A stretch of DNA of 64,000 nt from IMG/VR virus record IMGVR_UViG_3300025137_005045. One strand, 5' to 3'. The notes beneath the pieces were generated by a model that saw only the letters and a list, made by a program, of their open reading frames with translations, was not told the DNA's origin and did no database searches. The stretch's first letter is position 1. The number at the start of each line of letters is the position of its first letter. A program made the translations under genes and the position numbers. Shown piece by piece: positions 3,594 through 57,399 of the stretch. This stretch comes from a virus (taxonomy: Duplodnaviria > Caudoviricetes).

Positions 3594-4178
3594 ATGCCAC
3601 ATTTAGTACCAATAGTAGTTGAAAAAACACCACAAGGTGAACGAAGTTATGACATATACTCTAGACTGTTAAAAGATCGTATTGTGATGTTAGATACTGA
3701 TGTGAACTCAGCAAGTGCAAGTGCTGTTGTGGCACAGATGTTATTCTTAGAAGCTGATGATCCAGATAGAGACATACTGTTTTATATTAATTCACCAGGC
3801 GGGTCAGTGACTGCGGGCATGAGTATATATGATACCATGCAGTATATCAAACCAGACGTAACAACTATTGTTATGGGACAAGCGGCCAGTATGGGTTCAC
3901 TACTAGCAATGAGTGGTGCTAAAGATAAACGTTTTATCTTACCAAATGCTAGACACATGATACATCAACCAAGTGGTGGTGCACAAGGTATGGTTAGTGA
4001 TATTGAGATCACATACAAAGAAATTACACGCTGGAAAGATACATTAACCAAAGTATACGAAAAACATACAGGCAAACCTTATACACAATTAGAAATGGAC
4101 ATGGACAGAGATACTTTTATGTCAGCTGAAGAAGCAGTTTCTTATGGACTAGCCGATAAGGTCATTGAGAATAGATAA
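3594..4178 (+). CDS. clpP: ATP-dependent Clp protease proteolytic subunit
   Basis: [23 protein letters not shown] (Ser), MIHQP (His), DRD (Asp). Confidence 0.97.
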
Positions 4179-5302: not shown

Positions 5303-6601
5303 ATGTCAAATAAAAGTGTATTTTGTAATACGCCTTGGTATGAGGCACATATCTACTGGAATGGCGATCTAGGTATTTGCTGTCAGGAAAGTCACAAATT
5401 ATATTCATCAGAAGAAAGCCAATATAATATTAAAAATATGTCCTTGAAAGATTGGTTTAATAGTGAGCCAGTAAGAAAATTAAGGAGAGACATACTTAGT
5501 AACGAAAGATTTGATCTATGTAGTATGTGCTATAAGGAACAAGAGGTTGGTGGTACCAGTCGACGACATCGATCAAATCAAAAAAGTGCAATTTTTACTG
5601 AATCAGCATTTGATCAGAGTTATCAACAAAGTCCTGGACTAATATATTTTGAACACAGTCGTAATCATAACGGATACTCAAATACACTACCAATTGATCT
5701 ACATATTGATCTAGGTAACTATTGTAATCTTGCTTGTAAAATGTGTTGGGCCGGAGCTTCAACAAAAATTGCTACGCAACATGTAAAATGGGGAATACAA
5801 GAAGATAAAAAATATCTAAAAAATGACTGGACAAAAGATAAGGTCGTTTGGAACAGATTTTTAAATGACCTATTAGAGATTCCTAAATTAAAGAATATAC
5901 ATTTAATGGGGGGAGAAACTCTACTTACTAAAAAGTTTGAGGAAATGGTTGACTTTATGATTGCTCATAAACGATTTGACCTTAATTGGAGTTTTGTCAC
6001 TAACGGAACAGTATTTAATCAGCCATTGATGGATAAACTGAAACAATTTCAGAGAGTTGGTATTGAAGTTAGTATCGAAACTGCATCACCACATAATCAA
6101 TATGTACGTCAAGGTACAGATAATAGTGTAGTAATGGAAACCATAAACAAATATTTAGAATATAACAATGAATATTTTTCAGTTACTTTACGTCCTGCTA
6201 TTTCAGCATTAACTGTTGGCTACTATGATACTCTATTAGAGTTTGCTATCAAAAAGAAATTGCTTATAAAAAGTTTAATTGTTTCTACTCCAGCCTATTT
6301 AGATATTAACAGTTTACCACTGTCAGTTAAACACGAATATCAAAAAAAATATCGTAAATTATTAGAAAAATTTAAAGAAATAGATAGCTCAAGTGAATTT
6401 AATCAAAGCGATACTGCCAATTATCAACAAAGTATTTTAATGCAAATTAATCAGGTAATAACATTATTAGAAAGAAATCACGATAATAAAAAATTTAAAG
6501 ATTTGGTCAAGCATTGTCAACGATGGGATCAAGAACTTGGTCTTGACGCATTAGAATTGTATCCAGAGTTGGGAGAAGAATTTAAAAAACATGGATACTA
6601 G
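5303..6601 (+). CDS. Radical SAM protein with N-terminal SPASM/twitch-like domain
   Basis: CNLACKMC; MGGETL; N-terminal CNTPW...ICC...CSMC. Confidence 0.85.
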   Translation: MSNKSVFCNTPWYEAHIYWNGDLGICCQESHKLYSSEESQYNIKNMSLKDWFNSEPVRKLRRDILSNERFDLCSMCYKEQEVGGTSRRHRSNQKSAIFTESAFDQSYQQSPGLIYFEHSRNHNGYSNTLPIDLHIDLGNYCNLACKMCWAGASTKIATQHVKWGIQEDKKYLKNDWTKDKVVWNRFLNDLLEIPKLKNIHLMGGETLLTKKFEEMVDFMIAHKRFDLNWSFVTNGTVFNQPLMDKLKQFQRVGIEVSIETASPHNQYVRQGTDNSVVMETINKYLEYNNEYFSVTLRPAISALTVGYYDTLLEFAIKKKLLIKSLIVSTPAYLDINSLPLSVKHEYQKKYRKLLEKFKEIDSSSEFNQSDTANYQQSILMQINQVITLLERNHDNKKFKDLVKHCQRWDQELGLDALELYPELGEEFKKHGY

Positions 6602-11758: not shown

Positions 11759-11994
11759 TGGATATTTCAAAAATGAACAGAAAAGTATTTGCACAACCAG
11801 GCGATGGTGCTGAATACGCTTTAATCAAAGGTAAAACAGTTTACATGATTTCAGCACAAGACATCGACGAAGCAATGGCTAAGTTGAAAAAACAAGCAGG
11901 TGTACCAAACAACTGGAAAGTATCAACAGAAAAAGCAGTTCTTATTCCAGGAGTATGGGAATATCCTATGGCAACTTTTCAAGGAGCGGCATAA
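11758..11994 (+). CDS. Early hypothetical protein
   Basis: GGAGG SD; TAATG coupling. Confidence 0.75.
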   Translation: MDISKMNRKVFAQPGDGAEYALIKGKTVYMISAQDIDEAMAKLKKQAGVPNNWKVSTEKAVLIPGVWEYPMATFQGAA

Positions 11995-12350
11995 TGGAAC
12001 TAGTTAAAGAAGTAATAATGTTTAAAGATGAAAACATTGATCAAATAGCTCGTGAGGCCAAATTATCCGCTGACAAGGCACAGAGTGATCACCTAGCTAA
12101 ACACGGTGAAGATGCATATTGTGGCTTTGGTTGGGTTGAAGTGTATGTTGACAGAACTAATTCAAGAGAAGCAAAAGCATTGGCTAAAATGGGATTTGAA
12201 AAATCATATAGAAGAAAACGTATGGACATGTGGAAGCCTGGAGCATATAATGGACAGTCAATGACTATTCATGAAGTGGGTGCTCGAGCCTATGCTGAAG
12301 TATTATGCAAGTATGGCTTTAAGGCATACATGGGTTCAAGGGCAGATTAA
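11994..12350 (+). CDS. Early hypothetical protein (start corrected from 11955)
   Basis: AAGGAG SD and TAATG coupling give MELVKEV; AYCGFGWV...GQSM. Confidence 0.75.
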   Translation: MELVKEVIMFKDENIDQIAREAKLSADKAQSDHLAKHGEDAYCGFGWVEVYVDRTNSREAKALAKMGFEKSYRRKRMDMWKPGAYNGQSMTIHEVGARAYAEVLCKYGFKAYMGSRAD

Positions 12351-12707: not shown

Positions 12708-12736
12708 TTGACCAAAAAATCCAAAACTGCTATAAT
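12708..12736 (+). promoter_or_regulatory. sigma70-type early promoter (TTGACCA family)
   Basis: TTGACC-17nt-TATAAT; ~50 bp near-identical to 11414-11467. Confidence 0.85.
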
Positions 12737-12754
12737 GTATTTAAGAAATAAGGA

Positions 12755-12983
12755 AACAAGGTATTATTTGTCGGGGTATAGTGTAACTAACACGACAAAG
12801 ACTAAGGCTCGAGACTTAGTTGGCGATAATAGGGGTTAAGTTTGATCACTTTATAATCCCCTTGCTCCGTCAAATAATACTTTGTTCAGTGGTAGAGTTC
12901 CGTTGCGGTAGCGTCCACTTTAAATAAACGCAGTTGTGTGACAACTTTACGGACCCGGTTTACTGTCCTTAACTTAAACCGGG
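12755..12983 (+). ncRNA. Candidate structured noncoding RNA or long structured leader
   Basis: 16-bp stem 12755-12770/12871-12886 enclosing three hairpins; further stems to 12983; no ORF for ~270 nt after a strong promoter. Confidence 0.5.
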
Positions 12984-13006
12984 CAATTAATTTTAAGGAG
13001 TATGGT

Positions 13007-13090
13007 ATGAATAATTTAGACACAATTCTGCGAGTAGCAGTAGCTATTGTTGTAGCAGTCGTGGTAGTCGGTTTTATAATGGGAGCTTAA
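13007..13090 (+). CDS. Small membrane peptide (27 aa, not in track)
   Basis: AAGGAG SD; MNNLDTILRVAVAIVVAVVVVGFIMGA. Confidence 0.55.
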   Translation: MNNLDTILRVAVAIVVAVVVVGFIMGA

Positions 13091-13091
13091 T

Positions 13092-13223
13092 ATGGGAAAC
13101 TTTATTATAGGTACAATATTTGGAATCATTGTTAGCAGTGTGGGACTAACAGAAATAGCAGAATATATCGATTCGGGTGTTAGTGCTACTAAAGATTTTG
13201 TCGAAAATCGTGTTGACAAGTAA
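13092..13223 (+). CDS. Small membrane protein (43 aa, not in track)
   Basis: GGAG SD; MGNFIIGTIFGIIVSSVGL. Confidence 0.6.
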   Translation: MGNFIIGTIFGIIVSSVGLTEIAEYIDSGVSATKDFVENRVDK

Positions 13224-13252: not shown

Positions 13253-13597
13253 ATGACAACAGCAACTTTTAAAATTGTAGGAACTAGTAATCTAAACGGT
13301 ACAACCAAAGTACGTTGGGCCAATGATTTAGTAACAAGATTTAAAATGTTACACAAAGGTGGACATATAGATATTGAACTGTTTGAACTACCAGAAGCAA
13401 TGACTAAACAAGCGGCCGCTCAGTGGTTAGCTGACAGCGACAACTTTGAAAGATTAAATCAGGATGCTCAGTACGCAGTTAATTCGAAACTTGACGAGTA
13501 CATGAAAGTTAAACCTGGGGTTAAGATTTCAATAGAAGAAATTGCTCAACGACCTACTATTGAGGCCGTAGAAATAAAAGATCCAGCTTTAAACTAA
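13253..13597 (+). CDS. Hypothetical protein
   Basis: AAGGAAGG SD; 114 aa. Confidence 0.75.
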   Translation: MTTATFKIVGTSNLNGTTKVRWANDLVTRFKMLHKGGHIDIELFELPEAMTKQAAAQWLADSDNFERLNQDAQYAVNSKLDEYMKVKPGVKISIEEIAQRPTIEAVEIKDPALN

Positions 13598-13890: not shown

Positions 13891-14064
13891 ATGAGCATTC
13901 ATGAAGATTTATTAGCCGCAGTAGAAACATACCAAGCAGAATCAGAAAAATTTGATGGTGGTAACAAATCAGCTGGAACCAGGGCAAGAGCGGCACTTCA
14001 AAATATTAAAAATCAAGCACAGGCACGTCGTCTAGAAATTCAAGCAATTAAAAACGGCGAATAA
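13891..14064 (+). CDS. Histone H1-like (Hc1-type) small basic protein (57 aa, not in track)
   Basis: AGGAG SD; EKFDGGNKSAGTRARAALQNIK...RRLEIQ. Confidence 0.7.
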   Translation: MSIHEDLLAAVETYQAESEKFDGGNKSAGTRARAALQNIKNQAQARRLEIQAIKNGE

Positions 14065-16300: not shown

Positions 16301-16525
16301 TTGGCAAAAGAAGATATCATAGAATTAACAGGAGTAGTAACAGAAGTTTTACCTAACGCATTTTTTAAAGTTAAAATTGACAATATGGAAGATAAAGAAA
16401 TTACATGTTATCTATCTGGCAAGATGCGTAAATTTACTATTAAAGTTATTCTTGGAGATGCTGTCGAACTTGAACTTACTCCATATGATTTAGAAAAAGG
16501 TCGTATTACAAGACGCCACAAGTAA
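16301..16525 (+). CDS. infA: Translation initiation factor IF-1
   Basis: MAKEDIIELTGVVTEVLPNA...SGKMR...GD.V..ELTPYDLEKGRI. Confidence 0.95.
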   Translation: MAKEDIIELTGVVTEVLPNAFFKVKIDNMEDKEITCYLSGKMRKFTIKVILGDAVELELTPYDLEKGRITRRHK

Positions 16526-16544
16526 CTTAATTAGGAGAAACATT

Positions 16545-16706
16545 ATGACAAATTGGATTAAAAAACGTTGGGCTGAAAGAAGTTCACAAAGCGGCGTAGC
16601 ACTAGTAGCATTTGGAGTTATTGCTATTGTATTCACACCATTTGTATCATTTGCGGCTTATGCGGCAATTATCTACGGTGGATATCAGATTTGGAAGAAA
16701 GGATAG
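16545..16706 (+). CDS. Small 2-TM membrane protein (53 aa, not in track)
   Basis: AGGAG SD; [14 protein letters not shown]... Confidence 0.65.
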
Positions 16707-16707
16707 T

Positions 16708-17040
16708 ATGATTACCGTTACTGAATCAGCAATAAAAAAATTAAAAGAAATAATAGCTGAAGAAGACGACCCAAACTTAAAAGTAAGAATGTTTGTTAGT
16801 GGTGGCGGGTGTTCAGGAATGCAATATGGTTTTACTCTCGAAGAGGAACCAGCAAACGAAGATGATTTTGATCTAGAAGTAGCTCCAGGTGTACATATGT
16901 TAGTAGATTCAATGAGCGGACAATATGTGCAAGGTGCTGAAGTTGATTTTGCTGAATCTCTGCAAGGTAGCCAATTTGCTATTAAAAATCCTAACGCAGA
17001 AACAACATGTGGATGTGGATCCAGCTTTAGTCCAGGTTAA
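16708..17040 (+). CDS. erpA: A-type Fe-S carrier ErpA/IscA (start corrected from 16612)
   Basis: AAGGA SD; [11 protein letters not shown]; TTCGCGSSF. Confidence 0.9.
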
Positions 17041-41165: not shown

Positions 41166-41605
41166 TGGAAACAGTAAACATTAAATTTACCTTAGAACCT
41201 GAATGGTTCAACAATGCTCCCAAAATAAAAGTAGCTGTCGACAATCAAGTTTTATTAGATACTCAAATCGAAAATAAGTTAGATTTTGAACAGACTGTTG
41301 ACTTAGAAGATAACAGCAATCATCAGTTAACCTTTACATTGTATAATAAAAGCAAATACGACACTGTAATTAAAGATGATGTTATACAAAAAGATACTCT
41401 AATTAAAATATCAAATATAGAATTAGAAGAAATTGATCTTATGTCAATACTATCCTTAAAAAAAGACTTATTTTATTACGAACACAACAATAATGGTAGC
41501 ACAGAATTAGAAAGATATACATTATACGATACTTTAGGATGTAACGGAACTGCTACCATTAATTTCTCAACTCCATGTTACGTATGGCTGTTAGAAAATT
41601 TATAG
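41165..41605 (+). CDS. Hypothetical beta-rich protein (paralog of 6591..7031)
   Basis: KDTLIKISNIEL...LGCNG...FSTPCYVWL. Confidence 0.7.
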   Translation: METVNIKFTLEPEWFNNAPKIKVAVDNQVLLDTQIENKLDFEQTVDLEDNSNHQLTFTLYNKSKYDTVIKDDVIQKDTLIKISNIELEEIDLMSILSLKKDLFYYEHNNNGSTELERYTLYDTLGCNGTATINFSTPCYVWLLENL

Positions 41606-41631
41606 AATTAACTATATAGATAAATAGTTGT

Positions 41632-56624: not shown

Positions 56625-57399
56625 TGTTTATAAAGATATTATTACAGACGATGATATTGCTAGTCTGCTAGAGTATTTTAGATTAGTTGATGATAGAACA
56701 GACAGCCGACCTGATGTTGTTAGTAAGCATCCTCATTGGGATAAAGATCATTGGCCGCAGGGCATTATTAAAAGAATACTTAATCAGGTACTAGATAAAG
56801 AATATCTAGTAGAAGAAGTAATCTTTAATCATTCTAAGATTAGTTTTGGATTACATGCTGATAGCGGAGTACTTGATCAACCTATATATAAAGCCATATT
56901 GATTCCATTGGAAGTGACAGCAAACAGTGGAACAGCATTTTTTAATAATCATTGGTTGTTTCCAAGTGCTAAGTTTACACGTCAAAAATTTAATCCTTTA
57001 GATTATACAGTGTTTGACTGCGACAATAATCCTGTAAAAGTTAATCTTAAAGAATTTTTACAGAATAGAAATTTAAGTTTATTCTCAAATTATACAGATG
57101 CATACATTAAAAATCTCATCGAGACTCGATTAAACAATACAGGTTATACTAAAACTGATGTTCGAACTAATCAATATGAAAAAATCAAAGGATACGATCC
57201 CAAAAAAACTATAGATCAAAAGGTCTATAACCAACATCTTAATCATATTGTTTATGATGATCTACAGGGACTTAGCCTAGATCAAATCGTTCCTTGGGTA
57301 ACCGGAGAAGCTATAGTGTTTGACAGGACACAATTACATTGTGCTACCAGTGGACATACATCTAAGACTGGCATAACGATATTTACTGATCTGGTTTAA
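56617..57399 (+). CDS. 2OG-Fe(II) oxygenase-like protein (start corrected from 56518)
   Basis: GLHADSG; W..G..IVFDRTQLHCA. Confidence 0.6.
   Translation: MVDVYKDIITDDDIASLLEYFRLVDDRTDSRPDVVSKHPHWDKDHWPQGIIKRILNQVLDKEYLVEEVIFNHSKISFGLHADSGVLDQPIYKAILIPLEVTANSGTAFFNNHWLFPSAKFTRQKFNPLDYTVFDCDNNPVKVNLKEFLQNRNLSLFSNYTDAYIKNLIETRLNNTGYTKTDVRTNQYEKIKGYDPKKTIDQKVYNQHLNHIVYDDLQGLSLDQIVPWVTGEAIVFDRTQLHCATSGHTSKTGITIFTDLV

Follow-up and report, generated by a model that had tools for sequence, protein, structure and literature searches.

In the 64,000-nucleotide stretch of viral DNA analysed here (the window), the segment between an early promoter and the SD of two tiny genes almost certainly encodes real and mutually independent structured RNAs, namely module A and modules B+C. 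Sequence comparison shows that module A folds into a four-way tRNA core which a long stalk closes off. Comparison of its relatives with tRNAs shows that the tRNA scaffold is kept in this fold, while the elbow, the anticodon loop and, in most copies, the encoded CCA have been removed. We infer that A is a tRNA scaffold no longer used in translation. It behaves as a tRNA-derived non-coding RNA and belongs neither to the tRNA, YrlA or tmRNA families nor to any other family in Rfam. The tRNA fold has thus been reused with a rebuilt elbow, G18G19 and C56 being lost together and a hairpin growing out of the T loop, and our literature search found no design that combines these features. At least two uncatalogued phage RNA families travel as plug-ins between jumbo and T4-like phages.

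An RNA cassette behind a phage promoter

The window stems from a jumbo phage, as it encodes ClpP, a Clp ATPase, a GroES-like protein, ErpA and IF-1. Its DNA polymerase is nearest (43-45%) to those of phages of 350-470 kb, e.g. Serratia BF, and the sequencing runs that contain the stretch are marine or marsh samples. The cassette sits among short genes, directly 3' of the promoter, and comprises the following elements.

12708-12736, + strand: sigma-70-type promoter with extended -10, 11/12 consensus; predicted start at about 12743
12755-12886, + strand: module A, stalk-clamped tRNA-core RNA (z -5.67; covariation; model matches of 132-151 bits)
12888-12931, + strand: module B, with helix 12888-92/12915-19, an A-rich linker and a possible H-type pseudoknot
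12932-12985, + strand: module C; the loop (12964-67) of its 9-bp hairpin (12954-62/12975-83) pairs with 12940-43
12986-13090, + strand: U-rich spacer, SD and 27-aa hydrophobic ORF; no fixed partner of the RNA, as downstream genes vary among relatives
13092-13223, + strand: 43-aa hydrophobic ORF, kept in close relatives

The promoter that a preliminary description had placed ahead of the stretch is thus confirmed, and it is kept in relatives with and without RNA modules. The SD reported before two tiny peptides is also there, both ORFs being hydrophobic; a family search with the 43-aa ORF returned no match. Small ORFs overlapping the gap (12708-12839, 12735-12839, 12820-12927 and 12938-13090) were rejected as spurious, since they start within the promoter or lack an evident SD. 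The gap had been called the only long one free of ORFs, which is incorrect, as the window has others, e.g. 41166-41440. Long stretches with no convincing ORF are seen at 41166-41631 and 56625-57382. A second strong promoter (11/12) lies at 12223-12251 inside gene 11955-12350 and could read through the cassette. The same gene run (13891-14064, 16301-17040) encodes an Hc1 histone-H1-like protein, IF-1 and ErpA, with synteny kept in relatives; the search for ErpA homologues provided no named host.

Compared with shuffled sequences, the whole stretch folds with a z-score of -3.8, module A alone with -5.67 and B+C alone with only -1.3. The fold signal therefore comes from the 5' part, i.e. A, and not from the 3' part. 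The stretch had been proposed to be one novel structured RNA. Its novelty is supported by the Rfam search that had been suggested, which gave no match at the gathering score and only noise at E values up to 10, and no match with the homologous loci either. Its unity is not, as it consists of two or three separable modules. ARAGORN detected no tRNA or tmRNA and gave nothing but intron-laden noise at relaxed thresholds, and blastn against isolated phages found nothing for A, its T4-like copy or B+C. No description of these RNAs emerged from the literature searched, short of the 8,495 candidate RNAs from viruses listed by Fremin et al. 2023 (PMC10690425). Likenesses to glmS, preQ1-I, SAM-II, pistol and HDV-like ribozymes were dropped after the Rfam search or inspection.

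As for expression, a relative about 92% identical and harbouring A+B+C is represented by contigs in two DNase-treated marsh RNA libraries from one study, which inform on neither strand, ends nor level. The depth of these contigs over A+B+C (runs X19 and X20) is 3.5-6, not above that of the gene, and one of them starts upstream of the promoter; for these reasons, we make no claim of an abundant discrete RNA. A further RNA run (X18) covers the downstream gene only.

Module A keeps the core of a tRNA

Relatives were collected via a conserved gene (13253-13597) serving as anchor and via DNA patterns. For module A, they include 15 full-length copies, with identity down to 61%, from estuarine and marine jumbo phages and from unrelated T4-like phages. 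In the alignment of the 12 distinct sequences, 97.6% of cells are paired, and each helix has at least one compensatory pair; slid controls drop to 37-52% paired. These 12 sequences represent about five lineages, and shuffle counts are therefore not probabilities. The covariation analysis that the preliminary description had recommended thus revealed compensatory pairs both in A (14/39) and in C (4). The exchanges between G-U, A-U and G-C in the stems of A indicate that pairing acts in the + strand RNA rather than in DNA. The parts of A are the following.

12755-12770, + strand: 5' strand of the outer stalk, pairing with 12871-12886; about 12-13 bp conserved
12772-12778, + strand: 5' strand of the acceptor stem, pairing with 12863-12869; position 73 is U12870; no CCA
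12779-12794, + strand: U8, A9, 4-bp D stem, 5-nt D loop and R26; A14, A15 and A21 kept, G18G19 missing
12795-12821, + strand: lengthened arm in the anticodon position, with a 5-nt connector, a 7-bp stem and an invariant 8-nt loop (12807-14)
12822-12830, + strand: variable linker ending, in the alignment, in an invariant U48
12831-12862, + strand: T arm with a 5-bp T stem; U54, U55, A58, Y60 and C61 kept

Most of the helices seen earlier find their place in this scheme. The 16-bp closing stem is present in the window, its conservation covering only the 12-13 bp given above. The D-like and anticodon-like hairpins are where they had been drawn. The AGGGGTT/AATCCCCT hairpin also exists, as what is really a 5-bp T stem plus T-loop remnants around an inserted hairpin (12838-51) that stands in for C56/R57. 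The 7-bp helix 12772-78/12863-69 had been missed. It matches the acceptor stem of a tRNA and continues into the stalk, of 12-16 bp, which locks the acceptor end. All four listed differences between the window and the marsh RNA contigs within A map to the linker.

The view that the RNA does not resemble a tRNA is thus mistaken. All 17 core positions tested hold in 12/12 sequences, both in the 5' half (U8, R9, G10, Y11, A14, R15, A21, R24, Y25, R26) and in the 3' half (Y48, G53, U54, U55, A58, Y60, C61). With canonical tRNAs (RF00005), A shares the order of the cloverleaf arms, the acceptor branch made of a 7-bp acceptor and a 5-bp T stem, U8-A14-A21, R15-Y48, G53-C61, U54-A58 and U55. It differs from them by the absence of the G18G19/C56 elbow, of a 7-nt T loop and of a 5-bp anticodon stem with a 7-nt loop, in place of which it has a T-loop hairpin and a long arm with an 8-nt loop. 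Its ends are locked in the stalk and usually lack CCA: positions 73-76 read UCAA in 10/12 sequences and ACCA in 2/12, all paired. Neither ARAGORN nor RF00005 scores A as a tRNA. When it is aligned with phage tRNAs, its D loop looks like a canonical one from which G18G19 is missing, and the T loop holds a hairpin of 14-15 nt at the place of C56. Acceptor identity varies, with C1:G72 or G1:C72 and U73 or A73. The nearest tRNA likeness in the 5' half is to phage tRNA-Gln and amber tRNAs; the 5' 15-mer of the window's copy is identical to 5' ends of phage tRNA-Gln/CUA, in this subgroup only.

Modules B, B' and C

The copy of module B in L300, L302 and L303 is nearly identical to that of the window. 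The H-type pseudoknot proposed earlier (AGTGG with CCACT and GCGT with ACGC) is half sustained, in that both pairings are present but compensatory changes are absent; L302 and the marsh RNA contigs retain the helix and the short pseudoknot and differ in loops and linkers. A long-range pairing of 12892-99 with 12943-50 reaches 8/8 in four variants, among which a change from U-A to C-G is seen, and is imperfect in two others (6/8 and 7/8). In module C, the 9-bp final hairpin was correctly described. Together with the pseudoknot 12940-43/12964-67, it is 94% paired over five distinct sequences, with four compensatory pairs. The pseudoknot is kept and covarying, whereas the AGTTG/CAACT pairing that had been proposed is present in the window but lost in the L093 and L113 groups. 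Every C copy contains an open, startless frame of 10 codons ending in UAA, with no indel, and C often immediately precedes an SD.

In several loci (L086, L093, L109, L113, L118 and L119), B is replaced just upstream of C by an 80-nt pseudoknotted element with a covarying small hairpin, which we call B' (e.g. L113:420-500) and which has no match in Rfam. T4-like phages harbour a B-type element, with or without A (L156:3650-3712 on the - strand, L295:5684-5740 and L301:3310-3365), that has the first helix and A-rich linker of B but a different inner hairpin.

Accessory and mobile modules

Among 53 related jumbo loci, which are redundant and in part have short flanks, 27 have no module, eight have A only, eight A+B'+C and eight B'+C; C is seen in one truncated locus, and A+B+C in the window. 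Locus L312, like a loose end in run X3, has this promoter, leader and SD but no insert, and L159 has C alone behind the promoter. At another place in a jumbo genome (L153), A is followed by a new promoter. Near-identical B+C copies in L302 and L303 (incomplete in L300) have their own 12/12 promoter, and both complete copies are followed by a terminator, formed by a GC-rich hairpin and a U run, with no ORF. In T4-like phages, A is found with a third B-like element at two places (L156 and L295-L299), and L301 and L304 represent the L156 site without A. The clamp loader of these carriers is only 34% identical to that of the window. This distribution indicates that A and B+C are accessory, independent, mobile and untied to a downstream gene, and that A has moved between unrelated jumbo and T4-like phages.

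The pattern of the two loops of A gave at least 120 matches in bacterial genomes; none of the 80 listed fits our model of A (R1), and we regard those as chance matches. A search of five more distant jumbo records with R1 was negative, as was one with a stalk-only pattern.

Two invariant palindromic loops and a possible mode of action

Both 8-nt loops of A contain a 6-nt palindrome, CUCGAG (12808-13) in the anticodon-position loop and UGAUCA (12843-48) in the hairpin 12838-51. The two hexamers are unchanged in 15/15 full-length copies, in which the flanking stems vary and even the closing pair beside UGAUCA changes; most copies were found without using loop letters. The chance of finding 6-nt palindromes in both loops is about 0.002, as computed post hoc. 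As an ordinary T-loop also has UCGA at its centre, the first palindrome is less of a surprise. The window shows no depletion of either hexamer, and so no sign of a restriction-site effect. The self-duplexes are calculated at -9.9 and -5.4 kcal/mol versus -2.4 for the mixed pair. Subunits of OLE, GOLLD and ROOL are joined by symmetric palindromic kissing loops (10.1101/2024.12.08.627333), and A has conserved self-complementary loops like those of such RNA-only oligomers.

Considering these invariant palindromes and the kissing-loop precedent, docking of A with copies of itself is the best mechanism we can offer, closely followed by a protein decoy. It is a tentative proposal, to which we give a probability of roughly one in three. 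No switch from one palindrome to another is available to prove kissing, as the loops are invariant in all copies. The cassette would consist of stand-alone non-coding RNAs that are plugged in behind a reusable promoter, ahead of its SD, and act in trans, which agrees with the earlier suggestion of a trans-acting phage sRNA. A would have lost the surfaces read by the ribosome, synthetases and RNase P, i.e. the G19-C56 elbow, the 7-nt anticodon loop and the free CCA end. Its two lengthened arms, roughly at a right angle, would display the hexamers and dock by symmetric kissing with other copies, and the resulting RNA-only oligomer might, early in infection, offer a binding platform to a host factor or act as its sponge. 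The stalk would shield the ends of A and may permit its release from a long transcript, and B+C would have the same accessory role as a further small RNA with multiple pseudoknots. A more specific version, in which A is a self-assembling tRNA-corner block whose two arms at about 90 degrees build RNA-only squares or chains through kissing loops, is unlikely in that form. If true, unrelated marine phages would use squares or chains of A, stalks outward, in host takeover. A host factor of A, if there is one, would bear on what many orphan tRNA-like phage RNAs do.

Alternatively, A might be a monomeric decoy or ligand for a host protein that recognises tRNAs, such as a defence system's anticodon nuclease or a different factor linked to translation, with the invariant loops as the binding site of that protein. 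We consider this doubtful, with the following points in its favour. The tRNA core is kept, the first loop includes a Y32-U33-NNN-R37-A38 pattern, and a protein-binding site would be equally invariant. Patchy presence (27/53 loci have no module) and transfer between jumbo and T4-like phages fit counter-defence, and phage tRNAs are reported to neutralise PARIS (PMC11464382). However, the elbow, the CCA end and the 7-nt loop are the usual recognition surfaces and are all altered, the known cases rely on working tRNAs, and the second palindromic loop is left unexplained.

That A is mainly a cis-acting processing or stability signal, its stalk being an RNase III-type site that cuts or caps a long early transcript, appears improbable. 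The stalk and acceptor stem form a helix of about 20 bp on an AAGG base, as in the long AU-rich stem of T7 R1.1, and the invariant base, which consists of two A-U pairs, G-U and G-C, agrees in part with the proximal-box rule (PMC1540722). A is also always the first element after the promoter. Nevertheless, the distal box is non-canonical, the conserved tRNA core that the stalk encloses and the loops are not accounted for, A occurs in L153 without a gene of its own, and empty sites exist.

A riboswitch-like leader or a self-cleaving ribozyme, most plausibly formed by B+C, was among the options of the preliminary description and is quite improbable. The nested pseudoknots and alternative pairings of B+C, and the position of C just before an SD in many cases, would suit it. 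On the other hand, no Rfam riboswitch or ribozyme was found even at E 10, and the SD is unsequestered. At one and the same promoter, modules stand singly, in combination or are missing altogether, and the genes that follow are unrelated and differ at each locus, which argues against a riboswitch, as do the promoters with empty sites, the fresh promoter after A in L153 and the lack of an ORF after B+C in L302 and L303.

It is very unlikely that RNase P, trimming of the 3' end and addition of CCA turn A into a non-canonical tRNA that works with an 8-nt anticodon loop. Its 7/5 acceptor branch is intact and L078 encodes ACCA right after it, and tRNA-Pyl works with a 5-nt D loop devoid of G18G19 (PMC7609411). 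Nonetheless, acceptor identity is not conserved, CCA is missing in 10/12 sequences, the anticodon arm is far too long, the T loop carries a hairpin, and ARAGORN and Rfam are negative. The order of elements in tmRNA is pk1, tag and helix 5. A barely credible reading of A+B+C as a rearranged tmRNA-like system (tRNA-like domain, pseudoknot, startless frame of 10 codons with its stop in the last hairpin loop) is invited by this similar order and by the open frame of all C copies, but is weakened by a pseudoknot-to-frame spacing that differs by 0, 2, 7 and 9 nt, by modules occurring apart, and by the absence of G3:U70, CCA and any tmRNA or permuted-tmRNA match.

Comparison with known RNAs and additional observations

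T4 RNA C and RNA D resemble A as small stable phage RNAs with tRNA-like parts and no assigned function, but they end in CCA and belong to the tRNA cluster. Like A, the bacterial Y RNAs YrlA and Yrn1 have a tRNA-like domain on a long stem formed by the 5' and 3' ends, are non-decoding and occur in phages (PMC4201824). In YrlA, the order is permuted (T, acceptor, D), D/T contacts and a Ro60-binding motif are found, and the gene is next to that of Ro60. In contrast, A has the natural tRNA order, the motif and D/T contacts are not seen, and A does not match the Y RNA model of Rfam. Among the genes recognised beside the copies of A, none is Ro60/TROVE-like, and DUF2828, taken as the Ro60-like domain, is absent from five carrier fragments that are each only 2-31% complete. 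A DUF2828 gene is present in a distant jumbo relative without A (L310, G004:C1:55775-56515).

GOLLD, ROOL and OLE resemble A as phage or bacterial RNAs of obscure function with symmetric kissing loops, which are proposed for A. They are several times larger than A and have no sequence or Rfam match with it. The tRNA-Pyl and allo-tRNAs (PMC7609411, PMC5389517) are non-canonical cloverleaves as well, but their CCA end is free and their anticodon loop has 7 nt, with no T-loop hairpin or stalk in the passages compared. As for the RNase III stalks, A fits the proximal and distal boxes only partly.

Several other elements came to light in these phages. A conserved, apparently structured non-tRNA element lies behind a promoter in a phage tRNA cluster (L059, about 6075-6200; L052, about 3990-4120), with no Rfam match. 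Several jumbo phages encode a tRNA that combines a GAU anticodon with an irregular T arm (L052:3676-3746, L059:5751-5821 and L066), and CUA (amber) tRNAs with a long variable arm, which ARAGORN calls Pyl, are found at L003:1619-1707, L014:13850-13937 and L027:6183-6271. Finally, a long intergenic stretch with a common 5' part lies between early genes in two loci (L312:1806-2414 and L318:1571-1853) and may hold RNA.
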